Under the pieces are notes generated by a model. That model was not told the origin of the DNA and ran no database searches. It saw only the letters and a program-made list of their open reading frames with translations. Below, piece by piece: positions 3,525 to 63,990 of a stretch of 64,000 nt of DNA; the stretch's first letter is position 1, and every line of letters begins with the position of its first letter. The translations under genes were made by a program, and so were the position numbers. This DNA is from an uncultured Anaerolineales bacterium (lineage in GTDB: Bacteria > Chloroflexota > Anaerolineae > B4-G1): NCBI GenBank assembly GCA_964575455.1, contig CAZNRX010000016.1, positions 445 through 64,444 of the forward strand, in the 5' to 3' direction.

Positions 3525-4592
3525 TTACAGATCCAGGATGTCCTCGATCTGGTCGGTCAGCCACTGCAGGTCGGTGAGCGTCAGGTCGCCCATGTGCGCG
3601 ATGCGGAAGCAATTCTCCTTCAAGGGGCCGTAGCCGTTGGAGATCTGAGCGCCGCGCAGTGCCAGCTCGGCGTTGAGGTCGGCGACGCTGATGCCGCGGG
3701 TGTTCTTCACGTTGGTCACCGTGGGCGACAGGTAGCGCTCGTTGGAGAAGAGGTCGAAGTACTCGCGCGCCCAGTCCTGGACGTACGCTGCCATCTCCTG
3801 GTGGCGCTTCCAGCGGTTCTCCAGCCCCAGCACCATGATGTCGTCCAGCTGGGCATCAAGGGCCTCGATCAAGCTGATGCACGGCGTGGCGCGGGTCTGG
3901 TGTTTCGGGTACTTCTTGTCCATCTGCTCGTAGGAGAAGTAGTAGCCGCCATTGGCGACCTCCAGGGCGCGCTCCCGTGCCCGATCGCTGACGGCGCAGA
4001 CGGTCAGTCCGGGGGGCAGGGCGAAGCATTTCTGGGTGCCGGCCAGGCAGACGTCCAGGCCCCAGGCGTCGAACTCGATCTTGGCCCCGGCCATGCCGCT
4101 GACGGCGTCGACCAGGATCAGCACGTCCGGGTATTTCTCGTGGACAAGGTCAGCGATCTCGTCGACGGGGTTCAGCATACCGGTTGAGGTCTCGTTGAAG
4201 ACCACGGTCAGGGCGTCGTACTCGCCGCTGGAGAGCGCCTCGTCGACGATCTCGGGGGTGATGGGCTGACCCCACTCCGCCTCGACGGTGCCCGTGGGCA
4301 CGCCGTTCGCCTCGCAGACGGTGTGCCAGCGATCTGAGAAAGCGCCGTTGATGGTGTTGAGTATCTTGGTTTTCGTGGCTTGACGGATGGTCCCCTCCAT
4401 CACGCCGGTGGACGATGAGGTGAAGAGGTAGACGCGCTGCTCCGTGTAGAGGAGCTTCTGGAGCTTCTCCGTCACGCCTTTGTGCAGCGTGGAGTACTCC
4501 GGAGCGCGGTGGTGGATGATGGGCGCTGCCTGCGCTTCCAGGATCTCATCGCGAACGTGCGTTGGCCCTGGGGTGAAGAGCTTTCTGTACAT
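3525..4592 (-). CDS. class V (AGXT-family) aminotransferase, either serine-glyoxylate/serine-pyruvate aminotransferase or AGXT-type phosphoserine aminotransferase
   Basis: 355 aa with N-terminus FTPGPT, typical of AGXT/SerC class V enzymes. Strong RBS (CAGGAGG) sits 7 nt upstream of the ATG. Confidence 0.8.
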   Translation of the reverse strand: MYRKLFTPGPTHVRDEILEAQAAPIIHHRAPEYSTLHKGVTEKLQKLLYTEQRVYLFTSSSTGVMEGTIRQATKTKILNTINGAFSDRWHTVCEANGVPTGTVEAEWGQPITPEIVDEALSSGEYDALTVVFNETSTGMLNPVDEIADLVHEKYPDVLILVDAVSGMAGAKIEFDAWGLDVCLAGTQKCFALPPGLTVCAVSDRARERALEVANGGYYFSYEQMDKKYPKHQTRATPCISLIEALDAQLDDIMVLGLENRWKRHQEMAAYVQDWAREYFDLFSNERYLSPTVTNVKNTRGISVADLNAELALRGAQISNGYGPLKENCFRIAHMGDLTLTDLQWLTDQIEDILDL

Positions 4593-4776: not shown

Positions 4777-5000
4777 CTGTCTCCCACCTGAGAGATTCCT
4801 CCCGAGTGATATTTGGGATTGCCCCTTCGGTATCCTTAGCGCGGCCCCAGGTGCTCTTGGAGCTGCTCTCCGGATTTTCCAGAGTGCCGAGGTAAGGGGT
4901 CCGGTGACCTGAGAGTTTCGTCGCCGTAGTCAGCCGGCCACGGCGAGTTGCCCCTTCGGTGTCCGCTTGGAGGCGGCCTCTCCCCCATACCCCAGGGCGG
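4777..5000 (-). promoter_or_regulatory. tandem-aptamer glycine riboswitch
   Basis: Minus-strand RNA contains GGAGAG...CACCGAAGGGGCAA...AAACUCUCAGGUCACCGGAC (aptamer 1) and CUGGA..GGAGAG...UACCGAAGGGGCAA...AAUCUCUCAGGUGGGAGACAGAG (aptamer 2). These match the conserved GGAGAG / CGCCGAAGGAGCAA / CUCUCAGGCAAAAGGACAGAG blocks of the gcvT riboswitch. Confidence 0.7.
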
Positions 5001-19397: not shown

Positions 19398-20738
19398 CTA
19401 TGGGACGGCTCCCGTGTGCCGAGGGTCGCGGTGGAACATCGGCCAAGCGCGACGGCCCAGCGGCCCAACGTTGCGCAGGAGATGGATGCCATTGTCCGCA
19501 CCCACCACGATGTCGGCACGTCCGTCTCCCTCCAGATCCCCAACCCAGGGTGAGGAGAAGACGTGCGCCCCCAGATTGTGCGGAAAGCCGGGAAGGAGCT
19601 CGGCCTGGGCTGTCCAACCATACAGGTTCCCATCCTTTGAGCCGACGACGATGTCGAGCGCGTCGTCTCCGTTCAGGTCGACGAGCGCGGCGGAGGAGAT
19701 GATCTGATCGTCGACCTGGATAGGCCATCCGGGAAGGGGGCGTCCGGCGTCGTCCCAGACGTAGATCCGCCCGTCCCAGCTGCCGACGACGATCTCGAAG
19801 GCGCCGTCCCCGTCGAGATCGGCCACGGCGGGCGAGGCCTCGATGGAGTGAACGTCGCCGCCCGGCGGATGCGGCGTCGGGGTCGGCCCTGAGATGACGC
19901 CTATGGTGCGCACCGGGAATCCCTCCCGGTCTCGCCCTCGTGCATCGACGACGTGGAGGTACCCGTCGTCGTCGCCGAGGATGATCCATCTCTCGCCGTT
20001 CTGGTCGAGGTCGGCCAGGGCAGGGGATGAATCGGAGTCTCGCGCCAGCATCATCGGGAACCCGGGAATCCGCTCCCCACGGGCACTCCCCCCGACCAGG
20101 GTCCAGGCTGTGAGCCAACCTTCTGACGGGTCGCCTCTCGTGAGGGAGGTGATGGCGAGCAGGTCCCCGTCGCTGGCGGCGGTGGCATCGGCCCATCCGT
20201 TCATCGGCTTGGGCCAGCCTGCGACGTTCTCTCCGCCGGCGTTGAGGAGAAACATGTGTTCGTCTCCACCGATGGCGAGCAGCGGGCCCTCCAGTACCGT
20301 GGGCGATGACCATATCTCTTCACCGCCCAGGTCGACAGGGAATCCAGTGACGGACGAGCCGTCGTGGTTCCAGCCGTATAGAAGGCCGCGGTCCGAACCG
20401 ACGATGATCTCCATCGCGCCGTCGAAATCCAGGTCCGCCAGAGCCGGGGAGGAGAAAAAGCCACGGCGGCTCCACTTGGGCCATCCCGGCAGATCGTGCA
20501 GGTCGGTGTCGAGGAGATAGAAGTGTCCATCCCAGGAGCCGACGGCAATCTCCATTCTCCCGTCTCCGTCGACGTCCCAGGCCACGGGCGAGGAGATGAC
20601 AGGGTCGCTGGTTGGCTTGAAGCGGTGGTCAGCTGCCAGGTTGCGCGGCGATCTGACCGGCGCGCGGCAGCTGACCAGGAGCATCGAGAGACCGATCAGC
20701 GCGGCTGCACGCAGAGGCCTAAGGCTCACGGTCTCCAT
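19398..20738 (-). CDS. FG-GAP/VCBS repeat beta-propeller lipoprotein
   Basis: Lipobox LVSC. Repeated A(D)LDGDG..E(I)(V)VGS motifs across at least 7 blades. Confidence 0.8.
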   Translation of the reverse strand: METVSLRPLRAAALIGLSMLLVSCRAPVRSPRNLAADHRFKPTSDPVISSPVAWDVDGDGRMEIAVGSWDGHFYLLDTDLHDLPGWPKWSRRGFFSSPALADLDFDGAMEIIVGSDRGLLYGWNHDGSSVTGFPVDLGGEEIWSSPTVLEGPLLAIGGDEHMFLLNAGGENVAGWPKPMNGWADATAASDGDLLAITSLTRGDPSEGWLTAWTLVGGSARGERIPGFPMMLARDSDSSPALADLDQNGERWIILGDDDGYLHVVDARGRDREGFPVRTIGVISGPTPTPHPPGGDVHSIEASPAVADLDGDGAFEIVVGSWDGRIYVWDDAGRPLPGWPIQVDDQIISSAALVDLNGDDALDIVVGSKDGNLYGWTAQAELLPGFPHNLGAHVFSSPWVGDLEGDGRADIVVGADNGIHLLRNVGPLGRRAWPMFHRDPRHTGAVP

Positions 20739-20773: not shown

Positions 20774-22246
20774 TCATCCTTTCCCACCACCCGGTTCCGG
20801 CGCCGCGATGAATGGAAGAGAGGTATGAGCGGCGAGGAGACCGAAGACGGTGGCGGCATACCAGCTGTTGGTCGGGAAGAGGGCAACGTCGAAGAGGCCG
20901 GCGATCAGCATAGCGATCCACGGTGCCCAGGCCGGGGACTGCGGGCGGCTGAGGCCGCTCAGAACCAGCCAGATCCAGAGGGCGGCCCCTGGCAGGCCGA
21001 GCTCGGCCGCGGTCAGGAGGGGGACGTTGTGCACGGTGCGTGAATCGGTCTCGATGGCGCGCACAGCGACCAGGTAGTTGTTCACCCCCACGCCTCGCCA
21101 GGGATGCTGCCTGATCAGCCGCAGGGCCAGGTTCGCATCCACCTGTCGGTCTGAGACCGAGCGCGCCTCGATGGGCGTCTCCAGGTGCAGGAAGCGGCTG
21201 GCGACCAGGTCGTGGTAGAGCAATAGGAAGAGCAAGGCGAGCACGACGGGCACGACAAACTGGACGGGTTGTCTCAGCGTCTCGACGAGGCCGCGGAGGG
21301 ATCTCTTCCCCTCGGGGCCGCATGGGGTGCGACGGTGAAGGGACCTGTGCAGCAACCACGCCAACAGGCCAACGCCGAAGGCGAGCCAGGCGCTGCGCGA
21401 GAACGTGACCAGTAGGCCAAGGAGCCCAGCGCTGGCGACCAGTGCAAACCAGGCCTGTGCCCAACCGCGCGCTTTGGCGATGTCGCTTCGCTTACTCTTC
21501 TTATGGCGGATGTCGCTTTGCTTACCCTCTTTATGGCGGATGTCGCTTCGCTTCCCTTTCATCGTGGCGTCGTCGATTATGATAAGCAGCGAGATCGAAA
21601 GCACCGCGCCGAGGAGATTGGGGTGACCGCTGAGGCCATAGGCACGAAGCCAACGTTGGCCGCGGGCGAAGAGCACACAAACGCCAGAGCGCTCCGGGTC
21701 CAGCGTGGGCTCCCCCAGCGCGCTGAGCCCCAGGTCTCCCTGGAACGCAAACTGGCCCAGTGCGACGCTGCTCTGGATTGCGATCACAAGTGTAAGCGGA
21801 ATCGTCAGGCTTGGGGCCTCGTTGACGATGAACAGATAGACCCACCAGAGCAGGCCGAGCGAGAGGATGACGACCACGGTGCGCTGGTTGAGGGCAGGTT
21901 CGAGGCTGAGCAGCATCAGCAAGGTGAGCCCGGCCAGGGGAAGCGTGATGCCGGGCCTGCCCCAGCGCCAGGGTCGCGAGGGACGTTCGCAGACGCGAGC
22001 GACGAACCATGCGATGAGGGCCAGCCCGGGCACCAGGACAAGCGGCCCCAAGGCCACCGGTGCCTCATCGATGCCGGGGACCTGGACGATGGGCAGCCAG
22101 TTGAGTGGGCCCCTGGTGGGCGAGGGAAAGATGAGGGTCAGTGTGATGAAGGTGAGGAAGAGACCCTGCTTGGCTCTGTTGAAAAGCGCCGTGCGGCGGG
22201 CCTGGTTGGGCGGCCTGGGGGACGCGTCAGCCTGGATTGTTCTCAC
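20774..22246 (-). CDS. O-antigen ligase/polymerase family (Wzy_C) membrane protein
   Basis: Multi-TM protein with the Wzy_C signature region (RSAWLAFGVGLLAWLL). Contains an in-frame 30 bp x3 tandem repeat. Confidence 0.75.
   Translation of the reverse strand: MRTIQADASPRPPNQARRTALFNRAKQGLFLTFITLTLIFPSPTRGPLNWLPIVQVPGIDEAPVALGPLVLVPGLALIAWFVARVCERPSRPWRWGRPGITLPLAGLTLLMLLSLEPALNQRTVVVILSLGLLWWVYLFIVNEAPSLTIPLTLVIAIQSSVALGQFAFQGDLGLSALGEPTLDPERSGVCVLFARGQRWLRAYGLSGHPNLLGAVLSISLLIIIDDATMKGKRSDIRHKEGKQSDIRHKKSKRSDIAKARGWAQAWFALVASAGLLGLLVTFSRSAWLAFGVGLLAWLLHRSLHRRTPCGPEGKRSLRGLVETLRQPVQFVVPVVLALLFLLLYHDLVASRFLHLETPIEARSVSDRQVDANLALRLIRQHPWRGVGVNNYLVAVRAIETDSRTVHNVPLLTAAELGLPGAALWIWLVLSGLSRPQSPAWAPWIAMLIAGLFDVALFPTNSWYAATVFGLLAAHTSLPFIAAPEPGGGKG
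21478..21568. repeat. 30 bp imperfect tandem repeat x3 inside the ligase CDS
   Basis: GATGTCGCTTCGCTTACTCTTCTTATGGCG / GATGTCGCTTTGCTTACCCTCTTTATGGCG / GATGTCGCTTCGCTTCCCTTTCATCGTGGCG, encoding K/R-rich decapeptides (KRSDIRHKEG...). Confidence 0.8.
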
Positions 22247-33500: not shown

Positions 33501-36500
33501 ACGATCATTGGCTGCCCCCCGATCATTTCCAGGAGGAGCCGCAGGGGAGGGTGGCGCACCGCACGTCCCCAACCAACATCGGACTGATGCTCCTCTCCTC
33601 TCTCGCTGCCTATGATCTGGGCTACATCGGGCTGATGGAGCTGTCGCTCCGCACGAGCGATGCCTTTGACAGCATGGATGAGCTTGAGAGGTACCGGGGC
33701 CACCTGCTGAACTGGTACGACACCAGAACCCTGGATTCGCTGGCCCCGCGCTACGTCTCCACGGTGGACAGCGGGAACCTGGCGGCGTGTCTGATTGCGC
33801 TTGGGCAGGGGCTGGAGCAGCTGGAGCAGGAGCGCATCCTGCGCTGGCAGCGTTGGCGAGGGCTGTGCGATGCGTTGGATGTGTTGAAGCAGATCATCAG
33901 GGCCGCGGAGCAGGGGGTGGACGCTGCTGCTCAGGAGGAGATTGAGCGTGCAGCCGCGGATCTGAGTCAATGGATCGACCGGATGCGCGAGAGGGTGCTC
34001 GCTGTGAGGGAGGAGCAGGAGCGTTGGATCCCTCTGCTCGCGGAGCTTGAAGAGGAGGTCGCCGAAGGCCTCAACCGACGGCTCCAGGCGCTGCTCGATG
34101 CAGGCTCAGGGATCCTGGGCACTGCGACCCTGCGCGATCTCCGGCTCTGGTCGGAGAGGCTTCACCTGCATCTGCGTGACTTGCGCAAGGGTATAGAGAG
34201 AGCTCTGCCCTGGGTCTTCCTGCTGAACGATCCCCCGCAGGTTCTCGTCAGTGAGCGATCCGAGGAGCTGACCCCAGCTATCGCTGAGGCGTGGCGAGGG
34301 ATTGAGGAGGCGCTGCCGCTCGATCCGCGCCTGGGGGAGATAAGCGCCGTCTGTCGCAGGGCTCGAGAGGAGCTGGAGGAGCTCCGGCAGCTGCTGAAGG
34401 AGGAGCTTGCGTCGCTGGACAGGGAGCAAGAGCCCGATCTCGTCGGTCAGCTGAAGGACGCCCTTGATTGGTCCGAGGAGCTGGATCAAGCCCTGGCGTC
34501 GGCCCGGATGACGGCTGGCGGCATGATGATCGGCCTTGACGATCTGATACAGCGGGCTGAGGCCTACGTTGACGACATGGCTTTCGGCTTCCTGTACGAT
34601 GATCGCCGGGACGTGTTCCACATTGGCTACCAGGTGGACAGCGAACAGCTGGATCGCAATCACTACGACCTGCTTGCTTCGGAGGCGCGCATTGCGAGCA
34701 TCGTGGCCATCAGCAAGCGGGAGGTCCCACAGGGCCACTGGCTGCACCTGAACCGTCCTCTTTCTCGCGTCGACGGGCTGCGCACGCTGCTCTCGTGGGG
34801 CGGGTCGATGTTCGAGTACCTGATGCCGGACCTGATGATGCGCAGGTATGAGGAGACGCTGCTCAACCAGGCGAACCGGGCCGCCGTGCGTCGCCAGATC
34901 GCCTATGGAGATGAGAAGGGCGTCCCCTGGGGGGTCTCCGAGTCGGGTTACTATCGTTTTGATGCGCAGCTGAACTACCAGTACCGGGGATTTGGCGTGC
35001 CCGGCCTGGGGCGGAAGCGAGGGCTGGGCGACGATCTGGTGATCGCCCCGTACGCCTCGCTGCTGGCCGTGGACGTGGCGCCGGAGGAGGTGTTGGAGAA
35101 CATCGACCTGCTGATTGAGCAGGGAATGCAGGGCCACTATGGTTTGTACGAAGCGCTGGACTACACAGCGTCGCGCCTGCCGATGGGGCAGAGGCGGGCC
35201 ATTGTGCGCTCCTACATGGCCCACCATCAAGGAATGATCATGGTGGCTCTATCTAACTACCTCAACGACCACGACATTGTGAATCGATTCCATCACGATC
35301 CCCGCATTCAGAGCGTGGAGTTCTTGCTTCAGGAACAGGTCCCCGGCCAGGCTCCGCTTGAGGAGGTGCCGGAGGAAAGCGTGGGCATCGAGCGGCTGCA
35401 GCGCGAGCGGGTGGAGCTTGAGCCCTGGTCCGTGCCAACCGACGCTCCCATGCCTCAGGTTCACTTCCTGTCCAACGGTCGCTACGGCTCGCTGATCACA
35501 GAGGCTGGCGCTGGCTACAGCACCTACTCTCCCAGGCGATCGGGCGCGGGGGAGACGGTGGCCCTGACCCGTTGGCGGGCGGACACCACGCGCGACTGCT
35601 GGGGGACGTGGATCTACGTGCAGGACCTGCACATGCAGGATCTGCACATGCAGGATCTGCACATGCAGGATCTGCACATGCAGGATCTGGAGGGCGGTCG
35701 CCCCGGTGAATCAGGCCTGTGGTCCGTGACCGAGCAGCCGACCCATGCGCGTGCGGACGACCAGCTGGCCCGGTTCTATCCCCATCGGGCCGAGTTCCGG
35801 CGGCGGTATGGCGATATCACCCTGCACACGGAGATCGTCGTGGCGCCGGAGGAGGACGTCGAGATTCGGCGCGTCAGCCTGATGAATCACGGCGATGAGG
35901 CTCGGCGTCTGCGGGTCAGCAGCTACGCGGAGGTGGCGCTCGCGGCTCAAGACAGAGACCGGCGACATCCGGCGTTCAACAAGATGTTCATCGAGAGCGA
36001 GCGTCTGTCGGAGGTCAACGCGCTTCTGTTCAAGCGGCGTCCTCGCTCAGCGAGCGACTCGCGTGGATCCGCCATAAGAAGAGTAAGCGAAGCGGCAGCT
36101 GGAGAGCCGTTGTGCATGGCTCATATGCTCGTCACGGCGCCCGGCATGGAGGACACAGGCGCCCACGAGAGCGACCGGGCGCAGTTCATCGGGCGCGGGC
36201 GCACGGCGCGCGAGCCAGCGGCCTTTCGCCGGAGGTACGACGGGCCGCCTGAGGCCGAGTGGTTGTCCGGAACAACGGGAGCTACCCTGGATCCGGTCAT
36301 GGCCTTGGGCCAAGACGTCGAGGTAGAGCCTCACGCGACGGTCGAGCTCGCCTATCTGACGCTGGCTGCGGAGTCGCGGGAGGATGCGATTGCCTTGGCT
36401 CGCCGGTATCAGTCCTGGACGCGCATCGACCGGGCGTTCGATCAGGCCCACGCGCAGAGTGAGTTGGAGCTGCGTAACCTGGATCTCGAGGTCTCTGACG

Positions 36501-44486: not shown

Positions 44487-44840
44487 ATGCCAGACATCAA
44501 GACTGATCTCGACTTTGAGTTCTACAGCGAGGATCTGCCTAATCCGGATCTGGAGGACGACCTGTGGGCGGAGGCGTGGAACCGCGTTCAAGCGCTGGCC
44601 AAAGGCCACGACGATATGATCGGTGCCTCGGCCGCTGTCGAACGGGTCGAGCATCGCGAGACGCCGCACGTCTACAGGGCTCGCATCGTCGGCTACGTCC
44701 GCCCGGATAACGTTGTCACGGTGGAGAAGGCGGATAAGCCTATGGCCGCGCTGCAGCAGGCGCTCGATGCCCTGGAGCGGCAGGTGCGCAAGAAGAGGGG
44801 GAGAAGCGTGGCCCAACTGGGCGGCCCACTTGGGCCGTGA
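44487..44840 (+). CDS. ribosome hibernation factor (HPF/RaiA, S30AE)-like protein
   Basis: The C-terminal half (HVYRARIVGYVRPDNVVTVEKADKPMAALQQALDALERQVRKKRG) resembles the HPF beta-alpha-beta-beta-beta-alpha core. The N-terminus is divergent. Confidence 0.5.
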   Translation: MPDIKTDLDFEFYSEDLPNPDLEDDLWAEAWNRVQALAKGHDDMIGASAAVERVEHRETPHVYRARIVGYVRPDNVVTVEKADKPMAALQQALDALERQVRKKRGRSVAQLGGPLGP

Positions 44841-44849
44841 GCCCTGGGA

Positions 44850-45175
44850 GAAACCCTAGTGCTCTTTCACACAACAGACCTTGGCTTTTCCCTGCTCCCA
44901 GCCCTCGTCCTCGAGGGCGGTCTGGCCCAGGACAAGGCTCGATAGCACGCGTAAGCCGCCCCGAGACGGGGCTCAGAGCGACTGAAAAGTCCAAGTTAGA
45001 CGTGTGAAATTCCACTAGTGCTCTTTCACACAACAGACCTTGGCTTTTCCCTGCTCCCAGCCCTCGTCCTCGAGGGCGGTCTGGCCCAAGACAAGGCTCG
45101 ATAGCACGCGTAAACCGCCCCGAGACGGGGCTCAGAGCAACTGAAAAGTCCAAGTTAGACGTGTGAAATGGCACT
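44850..45175. repeat. tandem duplication (2 copies, 159 bp unit, about 97% identical) of a highly structured element
   Basis: Unit CTAGTGCTCTTTCACACAACAGACC...GCCCTCGTCCTCGAGGGCG...CCCCGAGACGGGG...GTTAGACGTGTGAAAT. It has 8 bp terminal inverted repeats TTTCACAC/GTGTGAAA and two internal perfect hairpins. A third copy begins at 45174 and diverges. Confidence 0.85.
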
Positions 45176-45281
45176 AGCAAGGTGATCGCCACGGTGCGGC
45201 GAATTTCCCACGGGCGCTGTGTGGTGCGTGGCACCTCACGATGGTAAGTAGGTTAGCATGCAGAGAGAGTGGAGGGCTAAG

Positions 45282-45839
45282 ATGACGAAGACCTATACGT
45301 ATACGGCAAGAAGCGCCGAGAATCCGGAGCGGGTCGTGACGTTCACGCTGCGCGATTCTCGTATGTCCGTTGGGGTGGGGGCGCCGCTGGAGCAGATGGA
45401 GCGTGCGATCCAGCTGGGCCGCGGCGAGGAAGCGCCCGAAGAGAAAGAGATCGAGGAAGCAGCCGAGGTTGAGGTGCGGGAGACGGAGAAACCGAAGCTC
45501 TGGCTGCGGCCGGTGGCTGTCTCGCTGGCTGAGCGGGGCACGCGCCCGGTTCACGTGGATGACGTGGTCGCCAACGTGAGGGACGACTGGCTGCAGGTCA
45601 GGGCGTGGATCCGCACCGGTGGGCTGCGCCTGATCCCGATTACGCTGATCGACGGCCGGGTCGACAATCCGGTAGCGGCTCAGGACTTCGTGGAGGAGGT
45701 TCAGGAGCGCAAGACGGTCAGTGGGTGGGACGTGTTCGACCTGTTCGATTACTGGGCAACGTGGGTCGTGGCCGGGATCCTTGCCCTGGTCATGTTCCAG
45801 CAGTGGCGGCGCAAGGGCAGTGATAAGGGCGAGGCGTAG
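45282..45839 (+). CDS. hypothetical protein with C-terminal TM helix
   Basis: 186 aa with an acidic central region and a C-terminal hydrophobic segment (WATWVVAGILALVMF). Confidence 0.5.
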   Translation: MTKTYTYTARSAENPERVVTFTLRDSRMSVGVGAPLEQMERAIQLGRGEEAPEEKEIEEAAEVEVRETEKPKLWLRPVAVSLAERGTRPVHVDDVVANVRDDWLQVRAWIRTGGLRLIPITLIDGRVDNPVAAQDFVEEVQERKTVSGWDVFDLFDYWATWVVAGILALVMFQQWRRKGSDKGEA

Positions 45840-45877: not shown

Positions 45878-48763
45878 ATGAGATCTGAAGACGGCGATCG
45901 AACTCAGGCCGACGAAGGTCTGGACCTGGACAATCCAGCCGAAGGGGCGTCGTCAACGGGCGATAAGTCGCCTAGGGGCGATGTCGAAGACGAGGCCGGG
46001 AAGGGCGTGACGAAACCCTGGATCCGCCCCGTCGACGAGGTCGTCGAGGCGTTGAACGTCTCTCTCACTCAGGGGCTGGACCCGCAGGAGGTGCGGCGGA
46101 GGCGACGGCGTTATGGACGAAACCGGCTGCGGTCCGCGGAGACGAGAAGCGCGTGGGATATCCTGGTTGAGCAGTTCAAGAGCGTGATCGTTGCGCTGCT
46201 TGCCTCGGCGGCGATCGTCTCCTTCGCCTTCGGCGAGGTGGTGGAGGGCATCGCCATCGGTGTGGTGATTCTGATCAACGCGGCCATCGGCTTCGTCACC
46301 GAGCTCCGGGCCGTGCGCTCGATGGAGGCGCTGCAAGAACTGAGCCAGGTCAGCGCCAAGGTCCGCCGTGACGGCCAGGCGAAGGAGGTCCCCGCCGAGG
46401 AGATCGTCCCGGGCGACGTTGTGCTCGTGGACGGCGGGGACATGGTGACGGCTGACCTGCGCCTGTTTGAGGCCTCCAAGCTGCAGGCGAACGAATCGGC
46501 GCTGACGGGCGAGTCGGTGCCGGTCGGCAAACAGACCGAGCCCGTTGGCGAGGAGACGCCGCTGGCCGAGCGCTCCAGTATGCTCTTCAAGGGGACCGCT
46601 GTGACCCGAGGGTCGGGCGCGGGCGTCGTGGTGGCCACCGGCATGGACACGGAGCTGGGTCACATCTCGTCCCTCGTGGAGGAGGCGGAGGAGGAGATCA
46701 CGCCTCTGGAGAGGCGGCTGAGCCAGCTGGGGCACCGTCTGATCTGGATCACGCTGGGCATCGCGGCCTTGGTGACCGTCTCGGGGGCCCTCAGCGGGAG
46801 AGATGTCTTCCTGATGATTCGATCCGGCATCGCCCTGGCGGTGGCGAGCGTTCCTGAGGGCTTGCCCATCGTGGCCACCGTGGCTCTGGCGCGAGGTATG
46901 TGGCGCATGGCACGCCGAAACGCCGTCGTCAATCAGCTCTCGGCCGTGGAGACGCTGGGCTCTACCAACGTGATTCTGACCGACAAGACCGGGACGTTGA
47001 CCGAGAACCGCATGACGGTCACCCGGGTGGTGCTGCCCTCTGACGGGAAAGCGCCGTCAGGAGAGACACGCACTCGGATCGAGGTCAGCGGAGAGGGGCT
47101 CGATATTGAGGGCACATTCAGTCGGGATGGGCGTTCTGTGGAACCCCAGGAGCACGAGCTGCTGCGGCGCTTGCTGGAGGTCGGCGTGCTGTGCAACAAT
47201 GCCGTGCTGAACGAGGATGCCTCCGATGACGGGGTCTCATCCGTTGGGGAGCCTACGGAGGTCGCGCTCCTGGTGGCTGGGGCCAAGGCGGGCATCAGGT
47301 ACGATGAGCTCACGGGCGGATCGCCCGAGCGAATGCCCGAGGTGCGAGAGGTGGCCTTTGACCCCGAGATCAAGATGATGGCCACGTTCCACCAGCGGCA
47401 AGAGGATGATGGCGACTACCTCGTGGCCGTCAAGGGGGCTCTGGAGGCGGTCATCGACTCCTCGACGCACGTTCTGACGGAGGAGGGGAGGCGAGAGCTG
47501 ACGGATGAGGCGCGGCAGAGGTGGATCGAGGAGAACCGCCAGATGGCCGGGCAGGGGCTGCGCGTCATCGCCATGGCGAGCAGGACTGCTGAGGGGCCGC
47601 TCTCGCCCCCGTCGTCCGACGAGGATCCGTACCACCAGCTGACGTTTCTGGGTCTCCAGGCGCTGCTTGATCCGCCGCGCAGTGACGTGCGGGACTCGAT
47701 CAAAGGGGCGCAGCATGCCGGGGTGCGGGTGGTGATGGTCACAGGTGACCAGCCGGCCACAGCCCGCAACGTCGCGCACGCCGTCGGACTGGTGGACGAT
47801 AGCGACGCGCCGGTGATCCACGGCGGGGACGTTGATGACCTCCGCAGTCTGAGCGAAGAGGAGCGAGGGCGCGTCTTGCGAGCGCCGATCTTCGCGCGCG
47901 TGAGCCCGGAGCAGAAGCTGGACCTGATCGCGCTCCACCAGGAGAGCAACGCGATTGTGGCGATGACGGGTGACGGGGTGAACGATGCACCAGCGCTGAA
48001 GAAGGCGGACATCGGCGTGGCGATGGGGCAGCGGGGCACGCAGGTGGCGAAGGAGGCAGCCGACATGGTGCTGAAGGATGACCGCCTCTCGACCATCGTC
48101 GCCGCCATTCAGCAGGGGCGCACAATCTTCAACAACATCCGCAAGTTCGTCCTCTACCTGCTATCCTGTAACGTAGCCGAGATCATGATCGTCGGGCTGG
48201 CCTCTCTGGTGAATGCTCCCTTGCCGATTCTGCCGCTCCAGATTCTGTTCCTCAATCTGGTCACCGACGTCTTCCCGGCGCTCGCTCTGGGGGTGGGCCG
48301 GGGCGATCCGCACGTCATGGAGCGCCCGCCGCGCGATCCCGACGAGCGGGTGCTGATGCGCCAACACTGGATGGGCATCTTGGGCTACAGCTCGGTGATC
48401 AGCGTCGCGGTGCTGGGGGCGCTGGCGGTCTCGGTGCTCTGGCTGGGCGTGAGCGAGGCCCGCGCGGTCACGATCTCATTTCTCACGCTGGCCTTCGCGC
48501 AGCTGTGGCACGTGTTCAACATGCGCGACCACGACACTGGCGTGATTGACAATGACATCGTTCAGAATCGTTGGATCTGGGGGGCTCTGGCCCTTTGCAC
48601 GGCGCTGCTGCTTCTGGCGGTCTACGTGCCGGGTTTCGCGAATCTGCTTAGGGTGGAGAAGCCTGGCCTCGAGGGATGGACGCTGATTATTGGCGCGAGC
48701 CTGATTCCCTGGTTCGTTGGCTTGATCGTCAAAGCAGTCGATGGTATGCGAATCACGACGTGA
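45878..48763 (+). CDS. cation-transporting P-type ATPase (type II, Ca2+/Mg2+-like)
   Basis: DKTGTLT phosphorylation motif, TGES-like region (LTGES), MVTGD, GDGVNDAPAL and 10 TM helices. Confidence 0.9.
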   Translation: MRSEDGDRTQADEGLDLDNPAEGASSTGDKSPRGDVEDEAGKGVTKPWIRPVDEVVEALNVSLTQGLDPQEVRRRRRRYGRNRLRSAETRSAWDILVEQFKSVIVALLASAAIVSFAFGEVVEGIAIGVVILINAAIGFVTELRAVRSMEALQELSQVSAKVRRDGQAKEVPAEEIVPGDVVLVDGGDMVTADLRLFEASKLQANESALTGESVPVGKQTEPVGEETPLAERSSMLFKGTAVTRGSGAGVVVATGMDTELGHISSLVEEAEEEITPLERRLSQLGHRLIWITLGIAALVTVSGALSGRDVFLMIRSGIALAVASVPEGLPIVATVALARGMWRMARRNAVVNQLSAVETLGSTNVILTDKTGTLTENRMTVTRVVLPSDGKAPSGETRTRIEVSGEGLDIEGTFSRDGRSVEPQEHELLRRLLEVGVLCNNAVLNEDASDDGVSSVGEPTEVALLVAGAKAGIRYDELTGGSPERMPEVREVAFDPEIKMMATFHQRQEDDGDYLVAVKGALEAVIDSSTHVLTEEGRRELTDEARQRWIEENRQMAGQGLRVIAMASRTAEGPLSPPSSDEDPYHQLTFLGLQALLDPPRSDVRDSIKGAQHAGVRVVMVTGDQPATARNVAHAVGLVDDSDAPVIHGGDVDDLRSLSEEERGRVLRAPIFARVSPEQKLDLIALHQESNAIVAMTGDGVNDAPALKKADIGVAMGQRGTQVAKEAADMVLKDDRLSTIVAAIQQGRTIFNNIRKFVLYLLSCNVAEIMIVGLASLVNAPLPILPLQILFLNLVTDVFPALALGVGRGDPHVMERPPRDPDERVLMRQHWMGILGYSSVISVAVLGALAVSVLWLGVSEARAVTISFLTLAFAQLWHVFNMRDHDTGVIDNDIVQNRWIWGALALCTALLLLAVYVPGFANLLRVEKPGLEGWTLIIGASLIPWFVGLIVKAVDGMRITT

Positions 48764-56332: not shown

Positions 56333-59300
56333 TCAGTCGATCTGCAAAGCGATCACCTTTCGCGCCAACACGCTGATCGCCTCATTGCGTCTCTGTAGCT
56401 GGCCCTTGATCACCACAAAGGGCGAACGGAGGGCCTTCCGGCTCTCCTCATAGACTTTGGGACGGATGACGACGTTGATGAGCCCTCCCTCATCCTCCAG
56501 CGTCAGGAAGGCTACGCCCTTGGCCGTTGGAGGACGCTGGCGCGAGACGACGATGCCGCCCACCCGTACCTGGCATCCATCCTCCAATTCCGACAGCGCC
56601 TCGCTCGGCGTCGCGTGCACTGCCTTTAGCTTGTCGCTGATCAGAGCTGTGGGATGTTCCCGGGCGCTCATCCCGGTGTGTGCCATCTCGGTCCATAACC
56701 TCCCTCGCGGCGAGAGAAAGGCGAAGCGGGGCCGGCCTTCCGGCGGTGGGATGGCCAGCTCCTGGGTGACCGCCCTTGACCCGGAGCCTGCGGCTGCTTC
56801 CAGGGCCGTCTTCAACTCCCAGATCAGTTGTCGTCGTGGGACGCCCCATTCGTCGAAGGCGCCGGCCCAGATCATGCCCTCTACAGCTCTTCTTCCCAGC
56901 TTCGTGCGCCGGCAGAAGTCGGCCAGGGAGCGGAAGGGGCCGAAGCGCCGCGCCTCCACCACGCTCTGGCCGCCGACCTCCCCCAGCTCTTTGATCACCG
57001 CTAGCCCCAGCCGCAGCGCCTGGCCCTCCACAGTGGCCTGCAGCTCGGAGGCCTCCACATCTGCCGGACGGACCTCCAAGCCGCGGCGACGAGCCTCGGA
57101 GACGACCACGTGCGCTGGATAGAACCCCATGGGCTGATGGCGCAGCAGGGCGGCGAAGAAGGCCAAGGGGTGGTAGCGCCGCAGCCAAGCGGACTGGTAC
57201 GTCAGCACGGCGAAGGCCGCTGCGTGGCTCTTGGGGAACGAGTAGCTGCCGAAGGCCTGGAGCTGCTCGAAGATCCGCTCCGCTGCTCTCGCCTCGACGC
57301 CTCGCTCTGCCGCGCCGTCGAGGAAGCGTCTCCTGAAGCGCGCGATCCTCCGTCCGGCGCGCTTGTGCGAAAGGGCGCGCCGCAGGAGCTCTGCCTCACC
57401 CGGGGTGAACCCGGCCAGATCTCGCGCCACCTTCAAAACCTGCTCCTGGAAGATGATCACGCCCAGCGTCTCCCTGAGCGCGTCCTCCAGGAGGGGGTGT
57501 GGATAGCTGATCGGCTCGCGGCCCTCGCGGCGGCGCAGGTAGGGGCGGACCATCTGGGCCTGAAGCGGCCCGGGACGGATGAGGGAGATTTGGATGACCA
57601 GGTCGTCGAACGAACGCGGCTGAAAGCGCGGGATCAGGTTGGCCTGGGCTCTCGATTCCACCTGGAAGACGCCGATCGTCTTGCCTTGGCAGAGCATGTC
57701 GTAGACCTCGGGGTCATCTTGTGAGAGCGACGTCAGGTCCGGGCGCTGCTCGGTCTGGCCTTCGACGATGGTCACGGCGTCCTCGATGAGAGAGAGCATC
57801 CTCAGCCCCAACAGGTCGATCTTGACCAATCCCGCGCCCTCCAGGCCATCCTTGTCCCATTGGGTGACCACGGGGGTAGAGGACACCCCTAGGCCCTCCA
57901 TGGTCGCCGGCTCCAGCGGCACCAGCTCGCACAGCGGTGGGCCGGAGAGCACCACACCCCCGTTGTGGATCCCCAGATGGCGTGGGATGCCCTCCAGTTG
58001 GGGCACCAGCCGCAGGAGGTGTTGGAACAGCCTGGGTGACTGTGTCGACCCGGGTGACTGTGTCGACCCGGGTGAGTTGGCGCCCTTGCACGCCGCCCCG
58101 CCTGTCAGTTGCTCGGCATCGAACGCCTGCAGCATCCCGCGTGACTCTCTCACGCTTTTCGCGTCTCGGACGTCGAGCGACTTAGCCAGTCGCTCCACCA
58201 GCGCCGGCGGGAACCCGAGCACGCGCGCCACGTCCCGCACCGCCGATCGGGCGCGGAAGGTGACGAAGGTGCAGGCCATAGCTGCGTGCTCCCGGCCGTA
58301 GCACTGGTAGACGTATTGGATCACCTCCTCGCGCCGGTCGGCGGCGATGTCGATGTCGATGTCGGGCGGTGAGCCGCGCTCCTGTGAGAGGAAGCGCTCA
58401 AAGACCAGATCGCACGCCACCGGATCGATAGGGCTGATATCCAGAAGGTAGGCCACTAGCGAGTTGGCCGCGCTTCCCCGGCCCTGGTAGCGAATGCCCG
58501 CCTGTTGGGCGAAGCGCACGATATCCCAGACGACGAGGAAGTAGTTGGACAGCCCCATCTGTTGGATCACCGAGAGCTCCTGCTCCAGCAGCGCGGTCGG
58601 CGGATTGACAGGGTAGCGGCGATGAAGCGCCCGCTGGCACAGTTGCCGCAGTCTGTGGTGAGCGTCGCTGGGTGCCCCCCCTCTTATCCCCCCCAGAGGG
58701 GGGGAAGCGGGCTTTGGGGTTCCCCTCCCAGAGGGGGAGCGGGCCTTGGGGACCTCCCCCAGAGAGGGGGAAGCGGGCTTTGGGGTTCCCCCCCAGAGGG
58801 GGAGCGGGCTTTGGGGTTCCCCCCCAGAGGGGGGGAAGCTAGGGCCTTGGGGACCTCCCCCAGAGTGGGGGAGGCTAGGGCCTCGGGGCCCCTCCCAGAG
58901 GAGAGAGGTTGGGGCCTTGAAGAGTCCCCCCGGAGGGGAGGAGGTTGGGGTCTCGGGGAGTGTCTGCATCCCGGCGGGCAGGTAGTCGCACGCTGGTGCA
59001 CAGCGTTGGGCGATGCGCAGGGCGTTCTCCAGGGCGATAGGCACGTCGCTGAAGAGCCTCGCCATCTCCCCCGGCGAGCGCAGGATATACTCGTCGTTGG
59101 AGCGCAGCAGATCGTCGGCGTCCTCCAGGACGGTCTGATGGTGGATGCAGCGCAGGACGTCGTGAACCTCCCGCTGGTGTGGATGGAGGTAGTGGACGTT
59201 TCCGGTCGCCACCACGTCGAGGCCGGCCCGATCGGCCAGCGTCGTCAGCTGCGCCAGAAGCCGGTTATCGTCCCTCACGTAGTGGCGCTGCAGCTCGATG

Positions 59301-63022: not shown

Positions 63023-63990
63023 GAGGGCACCTCCTCTTGTTCGGTCACGCGCTTGCGTGCTTCCTGGTAGAGCGCGGTCAGGTCGTTCTGGACCCGCTGC
63101 ACGGTCATAGCTCGACGGGCGTCGCCGTCGAACGAGATCTTCCCCGACATGGCCGCCCGAGCGGGGTTGATTCGGCCGGTGAACATCGCATCCATCACAT
63201 CGGCGTCCATCTCCAGCCGGACCTCCGCCGGAGCTGGTGGCTGGCCCAGACCGCCAATGACCGTGCCGTCCTGGAAGCCCAGGTAGACCTCCAGGCTTGG
63301 ATCTTGCAGCACGTAGTGCGTGGTCAACTGGCGTCCCTTGGCAAACTCTTTTAAGGCCGGGTCGTCTGCGGCGAGCTCGACGAAGGCGTCTAAGACGCGC
63401 TTCATCTCTCCCTCGCTCAGTGGCTGGAGTGGGGTTGAGACGTCTTGTTGCCGCTCTTCACGCCCAGTCGAGCTGCGACCGCTTCCCAGACCACGCAGTG
63501 CGGCCAAGACCCGCCTGACAAGCCCCTGACGCGTCGCGTCCCCCGCTCTTGTCCCCACCGGGGTGGGGGAGGCCCCCCCTCTCGTCCCCCCCAGAGGGGG
63601 GGAGGCCCCCGCTCTTGTCCCCACCGGGGTGGGGGAGGCCCCCCCTCTCGTCCCCCCCAGAGGGGGGGAGGTTGGATGCGGTCCCCCGACATCGTGGAGG
63701 GCCTCACGAAGCTCCGTCTCCAACTCGTAGAGCGGAATGGAGCGAGCTGACTCCTTGAGCATCTCCAAGGTGGGGTACCCCTCCTCCTGCTCGGCCGTCC
63801 ACTCCTCTGCGAACTGTCCGCTCCGGATCTCATCCAGGCCATCCCGCATTCTATCGCGCAGTCCAGGGAGCTGGAAGCGCATGCCGCGCGACATGGAGCC
63901 ATACTGGCTGGTGCGGCTGTGAAGCTGGCTCTGTTCCACCATGCCCAACTCGGCAATCTTCCCCAGCGTGTAGGAAAACTCACCGGACAT
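63019..63990 (-). CDS. partial CDS (N-terminus beyond the window): ketol-acid reductoisomerase-like C-terminal domain fused through a Pro/Gly-rich repeat insertion to an SCP2 sterol-carrier domain
   Basis: ..YMSGEFSYTLGKIAELGMVEQSQLHSRTSQYGSMSRGMR..DEIRSGQFAEEW.. resembles the KARI C-terminal knotted domain. The C-terminal 110 aa (..MSGKISFDGDARRAM..) resembles SCP2. Confidence 0.55.
   Translation of the reverse strand: MSGEFSYTLGKIAELGMVEQSQLHSRTSQYGSMSRGMRFQLPGLRDRMRDGLDEIRSGQFAEEWTAEQEEGYPTLEMLKESARSIPLYELETELREALHDVGGPHPTSPPLGGTRGGASPTPVGTRAGASPPLGGTRGGASPTPVGTRAGDATRQGLVRRVLAALRGLGSGRSSTGREERQQDVSTPLQPLSEGEMKRVLDAFVELAADDPALKEFAKGRQLTTHYVLQDPSLEVYLGFQDGTVIGGLGQPPAPAEVRLEMDADVMDAMFTGRINPARAAMSGKISFDGDARRAMTVQRVQNDLTALYQEARKRVTEQEEVPS
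63540..63670. repeat. two tandem 67 bp GC-palindromic units (..CCCCACCGGGGTGGGGG..CCCCCCCAGAGGGGGGG..) in frame within the KARI-SCP2 gene
   Basis: Seen directly. Shares the C7-AGA-G7 core with the dnaE2 insertion. Encodes ..PPLGGTRGGASPTPVGTRAGASPPLGGTRGGASPTPVGTRAG... Confidence 0.85.

Follow-up and report, generated by a model that had tools for sequence, protein, structure and literature searches.

Elements of the IS630 family are cut-and-paste DDE transposons, which insert at TA and duplicate this dinucleotide (PMC2170065). IS630 was reported to prefer, in vivo, a TA located within CTAG (Tenzen et al. 1990, 1991, as cited in PMC2170065), and duplication of TA was shown in vitro for ISY100 (PMC2170065). 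RUP (Repeat Unit of Pneumococcus), a 107-bp MITE of Streptococcus pneumoniae, has ends like those of IS630-Spn1 and is thought to be mobilized in trans (PMC3049150).

We analyzed a 64-kb stretch of DNA (hereafter, the window) from an uncultured Anaerolineales bacterium. A tandem repeat found in it is most probably a pair of neighboring copies of one non-autonomous MITE, 157 bp long and originating from an insertion sequence of the IS630 family (Tc1/mariner type); we hold this assignment with high confidence because of the ends common to an IS630-family insertion sequence, the CTAG/TA flanks, the dispersed copies, and the orthologous sites found empty in relatives. The following features of an IS630-derived MITE were observed: shared ends, insertion at TA within CTAG, a small non-coding body, dispersed copies, and presence or absence at orthologous sites. 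The element adds one more member to a kind already well known and has no name in the resources queried, ISfinder not being among them.

RUP is the closest known analogue: the principle is common to both elements, the sequence is not. Both are small and non-coding, with IS630-like ends, a target-site duplication, many dispersed copies, and a strong fold; however, they share no sequence similarity and belong to hosts from Firmicutes and Chloroflexota, respectively. RUP is AT-rich and 107 bp long, whereas the element of the window is GC-rich, 157 bp long, carries two G/C hairpins and, unlike RUP, forms an exact head-to-tail pair with one shared TA. The insertion sequence sharing its ends (described below) resembles IS630 and ISY100 in its DDE_3 transposase, N-terminal helix-turn-helix, length of about 1.2 kb, inverted repeats, and CTAG-flanked insertions with a presumably duplicated TA. 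It differs from them in a transposase split over two frames in both copies found, and the window contains only a non-autonomous derivative. MITEPsy1 of Pseudomonas syringae is similar in size (about 100 bp), inverted repeats, and insertion at CTAG (PMC3189936), but it duplicates all 4 bp and originates from the IS5 family, whereas the insertion sequence matching the element of the window belongs to the IS630 family. REP/BIME, ERIC, and other palindromic repeats likewise occur between genes in multiple copies, fold strongly, and often share a transcript with their neighbors; they are without the combination of inverted repeats shared with an insertion sequence, fixed target, and target duplication which characterizes the element of the window.

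Tandem Repeats Finder reported an array with a 159-bp period at 44856–45177 (2.0 copies, 96% matches, 0 indels, score 609), by far the strongest tandem array in the 64-kb window. An alignment of the units with 10-nt flanks revealed exactly five differences between them: three G/A transitions and TC versus GG in the right end. An earlier sequence-only reading had described two head-to-tail 159-bp copies with about five differences, placed between the HPF-like gene and the gene preceding a P-type ATPase; both the array and its location, a gap of 441 bp, were recovered as described. At the single-base level, the layout is C-TA-[157]-TA-[157]-TA-G, the unit consisting of the 157-bp element plus TA, and CTAG is present at all three junctions of the pair (44856–44859, 45015–45018, and 45174–45177). 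The features of the locus, with the MITE designation carrying the confidence given above, are as follows:

44487–44840, plus strand: upstream gene of 117 aa, matching Ribosomal_S30AE/HPF only weakly; 16 nt separate its stop codon from CTAG
44740–45234, minus strand: 164-aa ORF running through both MITE copies, judged spurious; no Pfam match
44856–44859, no strand: left target site CTAG, in which TA (44857–44858) is the presumed duplicated dinucleotide
44859–45015, plus strand: MITE copy 1, 157 bp; four of the five differences are private to it in comparison with the closest copies elsewhere (L008, L028)
44859–44872, plus strand: left terminal inverted repeat of copy 1, GTGCTCTTTCACAC
44901–44918, plus strand: internal hairpin 1 of copy 1, GCCCTCG-TCCT-CGAGGGC; present again 159 bp further
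44959–44971, plus strand: internal hairpin 2 of copy 1, CCCCG-AGA-CGGGG; conserved across the family and present again 159 bp further
45002–45015, plus strand: right terminal inverted repeat of copy 1, GTGTGAAATTCCAC, with TC where the family has GG
45016–45017, no strand: TA common to both copies, the center of the regenerated CTAG (45015–45018)
45018–45174, plus strand: MITE copy 2, 157 bp, nearer to the family consensus than copy 1
45018–45031 and 45161–45174: inverted repeats of copy 2
45060–45077 and 45118–45130: hairpins of copy 2
45174–45177, no strand: right target site CTAG, with TA at 45175–45176
45282–45839, plus strand: downstream conserved hypothetical gene, in the 185-aa form found in relatives
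45878–48763: P-type ATPase, following the 185-aa gene

The 157-bp element starts with GTGCTCTTTCACAC and ends with GTGTGAAATGGCAC in copy 2 and with ...TTCCAC in copy 1. The octamer TTTCACAC/GTGTGAAA, which had been taken for 8-bp terminal inverted repeats, was found four times in the 64-kb window, always at unit ends, against a chance expectation of 0.54. The true inverted repeats, however, are 14 bp long (GTGCnnTTTCACAC, with 11 of 14 matching positions in copy 1 and 12 of 14 in copy 2), and inward of them only patchy subterminal matches (TTGG, CTTTTC) were observed. Both internal hairpins proposed earlier are present in the sequence. A single unit folds into one long imperfect hairpin whichever strand is taken: the energy is −66.5 kcal/mol (z about −4.1) for one strand and −75 kcal/mol (z about −4.2) for the other. 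The only ORF across the element is the 164-aa one on the minus strand, which is built from the repeat itself and had been suspected of being spurious; we judge it so as well. A truncated third copy, suggested to begin at 45174, was rejected: 3′ of the second unit only the target tetranucleotide CTAG is common, and unique flanking sequence follows.

Further copies were searched for in metagenome contigs using the 18-mer TTTCACACAACAGACCTT, which yielded 40 loci; whole-unit blastn separated true relatives from chance matches, and about 30 of the 40 loci were discarded because outside the seed they resembled the unit barely or not at all. Among GTDB species representatives, 38 loci were obtained with this 18-mer; the hits in Flavobacterium, Calothrix, and others were discarded, as no similarity extended past the seed. 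A scan of genome contigs with the 20-mer TTTCACACAACAGACCTTGG returned nothing, because most family members carry A, not G, at its last position; nor did blastn of the unit against PLSDB plasmids give a match. In the 64-kb window, to which the copy count within the source genome refers, there was no further copy of the MITE.

Copies were extracted as everything bounded by TTTCACA[C/G]...[C/G]TGTGAAA. In addition to the window pair, ten further complete small copies were found in metagenome contigs and a related MAG: nine of them entered the family alignment and one (L034) was divergent. Two full copies (L008, L028) were 94–95% identical to those of the window; a longer variant (L010) and a copy with 81% identity (L041) were also found. 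Three copies were located on three contigs of metagenome Ga0207797. The matches at L006, L014, and L034 were limited to the terminal 29–35 nt of the unit and occurred as an inverted pair in L006 and L034. The scan of GTDB representatives retained nine hits on eight contigs of the uncultured Anaerolineales bacterium binchicken_co15_218 (GCA_964421785.1). This MAG contains six complete copies (L062, L068, L072, L082, L083, L084) and three fragments at contig ends (L054, L080, L081), the latter position being expected of a repeat that breaks assemblies. One further hit belonged to a second Anaerolineales MAG.

The copies occur in unrelated contexts and in both orientations. Seven of them (L008, L010, L028, L062, L068, L083, L084) have CTAG on both sides and flanks that are all different, while one or both flanks of L072, L082, L034, and L041 are degenerate. 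A check for target-site duplications had been proposed together with the original description; as reported above, CTAG was found on both sides of both window copies, and it flanks most of their relatives. At the empty sites of related genomes, CTAG or TTAG is present just once. The alignment resolved two subfamilies, 66–70% identical to each other: the window type (window copies 1 and 2, L008, L028) and the MAG type (L010, L062, L068, L072, L083, L084). L083 does not differ from L084 (100% identity), L062 shares 99% identity with both, and yet their flanks differ; judging from these sequences, this points to recent movement in GCA_964421785.1. In L008 (880–1080), the MITE is located at the center of a pre-existing palindrome, gaattcggaagt-CTAG-acttccggattc, the CTAG target being the center of the inverted repeat. 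The element in L034 (211–373) is 150–160 bp long and has the ends of the family and an unrelated interior, the alignment with the window unit being confined to these ends; this suggests a second, independent MITE from the same IS lineage.

A full-length insertion sequence with the same ends as the MITE was found on metagenome contig L006 (115–1322, 1,208 bp), with CTAG on both sides. Its left end is GTGCCTTTTCACACAACAGATCCTGG... and its right end, given as the reverse complement, is GTGCTCTTTCACACAACAGACCTTGA... Compared with the first 34 nt of the unit (44856–44889), the right end of this insertion sequence shows 94% identity and the left one 89%. The 34-nt similarity is restricted to the left end of the MITE; at its right end the likeness is limited to the 14 terminal bases, and the interior of the MITE is unrelated to the insertion sequence.

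Two ORFs in different frames were encoded in the insertion sequence of L006: one of 88 aa, matching HTH_23, HTH_29, and HTH_28, and one of 289 aa, matching DDE_3. They span positions 1–51 and 67–297 of the NCBIfam model NF033545 (IS630 family transposase), and the larger ORF scored 128.1 bits with a cut-off of 100; the only other NCBIfam match listed for this transposase was IS3, with 17.4 bits versus a cut-off of 160. A second copy, on contig L014, encodes a protein 87–88% identical to that of L006 in the same two-frame arrangement. The parent insertion sequence was seen only on these two short metagenome contigs, and a transposase gene was absent from the 64-kb window (tblastn). The split HTH and DDE ORFs occupy 155–1314 in L006 and 1–1103 in L014, with the junction near a G run at about 410–421 of L006. 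As the split is kept in both copies though these are only 87–88% identical, it suggests programmed frameshifting rather than decay.

Gene order around the repeat is conserved in the closest relatives: LigA, a PRC-barrel protein, DUF72, the HPF-like gene, the 185-aa protein, the P-type ATPase, and baeRF. The downstream protein (185/193 aa) has 288 homologues, the named ones being from Anaerolineae or Chloroflexota MAGs. Exact-sequence matches were found neither to the HPF-like protein nor to either start variant of the downstream protein; the DUF72 protein had an exact match on a single 2.2-kb contig, which ends before the repeat.

Three relatives contain the orthologous gap between the HPF-like gene and the gene of the 185-aa protein without the element:

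L043 (in GCA_964421785.1, with two MITEs on the same contig): 185-aa protein 84% identical to that of the window; gap of 124 bp
L047: 185-aa protein 88% identical; gap of 141 bp
L046: 185-aa protein 82% identical; gap of 157 bp

None of these gaps has similarity to the MITE unit. The gap of the window, 441 bp, is reduced to 123 bp when 318 bp are subtracted. In the relatives, the left flank reads ...TGGGAGAAACC[C/T]TAG, but GCCGTAG in L046, and the insertion place reads ...GGGAGAAACCCTAG in L043, ...CCTTAG in L047, and ...CCGTAG in L046. The HPF-like gene uses this TAG as its stop codon: in L043, the called gene terminates there (3876), and the alignment points to the same stop codon in L047 and L046. 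The target of the insertion was therefore the TA of the CTAG which held the ancestral stop codon of the HPF-like gene.

The HPF-like gene of the window lineage now ends 16 nt earlier. Both the window and L042 (Ga0374083_0024798, 3540–4000), whose neighboring protein is 98% identical to that of the window strain, carry about 28 extra nt near the 3′ end of this gene in comparison with the three relatives (window 44812–44840; cf. L047 890–1115 and L043 3815–3876). The extra stretch includes the palindrome GGCCCAA...TTGGGCC, the frame is shifted, and a new stop codon is located at 44838–44840. The ancestral C-terminus (...EPWEKP*) survives out of frame in the window, ending at the TAG of the MITE target. 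L042 retains the first 50 bp of the MITE with 100% identity, joined to sequence located 20 bp past the second copy in the window, and the HPF-like gene of this strain lacks part of the N-terminus (95 aa vs. 117). The remnant is a deletion derivative or possibly an assembly artefact, and the same two readings apply to the shortened gene; in either case, the insertion of the MITE predates the split of the window and L042 strains.

[quoted passage not shown] A transposase supplied by a full-length insertion sequence of the same family would bind the 14-bp inverted repeats, excise the element, and paste it into the TA of 5′-CTAG-3′, with TA being duplicated; we infer that a cognate transposase is present in the source genome. 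With an element of the form G...C, each insertion would rebuild CTAG on both sides. The first insertion would have used the ancestral CTAG holding the stop codon of the HPF-like gene; a second one, into the regenerated CTAG, would give the arrangement C-TA-[157]-TA-[157]-TA-G.

Such a re-insertion, into one of the CTAG sites regenerated by the first, is our preferred reading of the doubling, although with only modest confidence. It is also quite possible, if less probable, that a single insertion was doubled in place by unequal crossing-over or slippage between the flanking CTAG/TA sites. Both routes yield exactly the observed layout, and the five differences fit either of them; at 3%, these differences indicate that the doubling was not recent under either origin. 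The window copies are mutually closest (97% identity, vs. 93–95% to L008 and L028) and have in common a derived A at alignment column 185 which no other copy carries, as expected of in-place doubling; however, copies descending from the master element of one genome would also be mutually closest, so the similarity is not diagnostic. The period of exactly one element plus TA is consistent with an exchange as well, and the deletion in L042, running from inside the MITE into the flank, is a rearrangement at the same spot which does not involve transposase. On the other hand, an element that seeks CTAG and regenerates this target at both ends would naturally re-insert next to itself. We lean towards re-insertion because an exchange would have no more than 4 bp of homology (CTAG) to act on.

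The hairpins may also matter at the RNA level. They are kept across the two subfamilies, and the element is repeatedly located just after or between genes; for these reasons, we considered that the element acts as a portable RNA-level module (transcript stabilizer, attenuator, or terminator) and that arrays built through CTAG tune expression of the HPF-like gene and of the downstream ATPase operon, and find this unlikely. If the three flanking genes are co-transcribed, the hairpins of the MITE would be inside the mRNA and could affect it; an effect on mRNA was proposed for the pneumococcal elements RUP and BOX (PMC3049150).

Still less probable, in our opinion, is that the unit is a duplicated small RNA gene or a cis-regulatory structured RNA (leader or 3′UTR) in which the hairpins are functional. 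The strong fold (z about −4.1) speaks for such a role, but it is present on both strands, and equal folding of this kind is typical of inverted-repeat DNA. The position between genes of the same orientation would suit an RNA of this sort; against it, copies occur in unrelated contexts, in both orientations and flanked by CTAG, and the orthologous site in relatives is without the element. Both hairpins are retained in subfamilies only 66–70% identical, and hairpin 1 shows a compensatory change (GCCCTCG/CGAGGGC in the window type, GCCCCCG-TCT-CGGGGGC in the second subfamily); the transposon model by itself would not call for such a change. However, the covariation term calculated by RNAalifold for 11 copies was small (−1.3 kcal/mol), 3 of 39 pairs were changed on both sides, one of them (in hairpin 1) convincingly by eye, and the signal is confounded by the subfamily structure; with two subfamilies only, the covariation of hairpin 1 is therefore a single event, a hint rather than evidence.

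An Rfam scan, which had been proposed as a check, revealed nothing relevant at gathering or permissive thresholds: in 44700–45400, the best hits (E = 0.8–5) were chance-level miRNA models, far below the thresholds. A consensus scan restricted to sigma-70 found no sigma-70-like promoter, and no terminator was found within the unit; one weak terminator-like site straddles the left CTAG, outside the unit. Of the two identities originally offered for the repeat, small RNA or MITE, the second is strongly supported by IS630-type ends, CTAG flanks, dispersed copies, and empty orthologous sites, while the small RNA or leader is not supported, with neither an Rfam match nor a sigma-70-like promoter found. 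The only match at gathering level in the 64-kb window was a glycine riboswitch, whose aptamer is located at 4887–4995 on the minus strand (52 bits vs. a gathering score of 32).

It is likewise very improbable that the unit is a MITE of the IS5 type, duplicating the 4-bp CTAG, with an element proper of 155 bp (TGCTC...TGGCA). Such an origin would agree with the intact CTAG on both sides of nearly every copy, and IS5-related MITEs such as MITEPsy1 duplicate CTAG or YTAA (PMC3189936). From sequence alone, duplication of TA by a G...C element looks the same as duplication of 4-bp CTAG. However, IS630 itself prefers TA inside CTAG, and the transposase of the full-length element with shared ends matched the NCBIfam IS630 model above its cut-off as well as Pfam DDE_3, whereas no IS5-type match (DDE_Tnp_1) was obtained at the thresholds used. 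A CRISPR, a REP sequence, or a simple local duplication of unique DNA was rejected in view of the dispersal of the unit, its inverted repeats, and the existence of a parent insertion sequence.

Assignment of the repeat to an IS630-derived MITE removes the spurious 164-aa ORF and a false small RNA candidate from the annotation. It also explains breaks in short-read assemblies: Logan contig L001 stops 72 bp short of the repeat, and the ends of three MAG contigs fall inside copies. For uncultured Anaerolineales genomes, it provides a definition for masking (157 bp, ends GTGCnnTTTCACAC, target CTAG). The understanding of how such elements work is unchanged; the locus is a clean case from nature in which an IS630-type element has restored the CTAG that it targets, leaving an exact head-to-tail pair on the former stop codon of a gene.

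Several other repeats were observed in the window. Arrays of G/C-rich hairpins with a period of about 33 bp are located at 58686–58945 (5–6 units) and 63540–63671 (4 units); they have cores such as CCCCCCCAGAGGGGGGG and no unique spacers, and may represent a REP-like palindromic repeat family. Short tandem arrays were found at 35619–35689 (15-bp unit TGCAGGATCTGCACA, 4.7 copies, 98% identity) and 21475–21557 (30-bp unit, 2.8 copies). Six diverged 56-nt direct repeats, with a spacing of 141 nt or greater (192, 423), are present at 19500–20593 and are probably repeated domains within one coding sequence.
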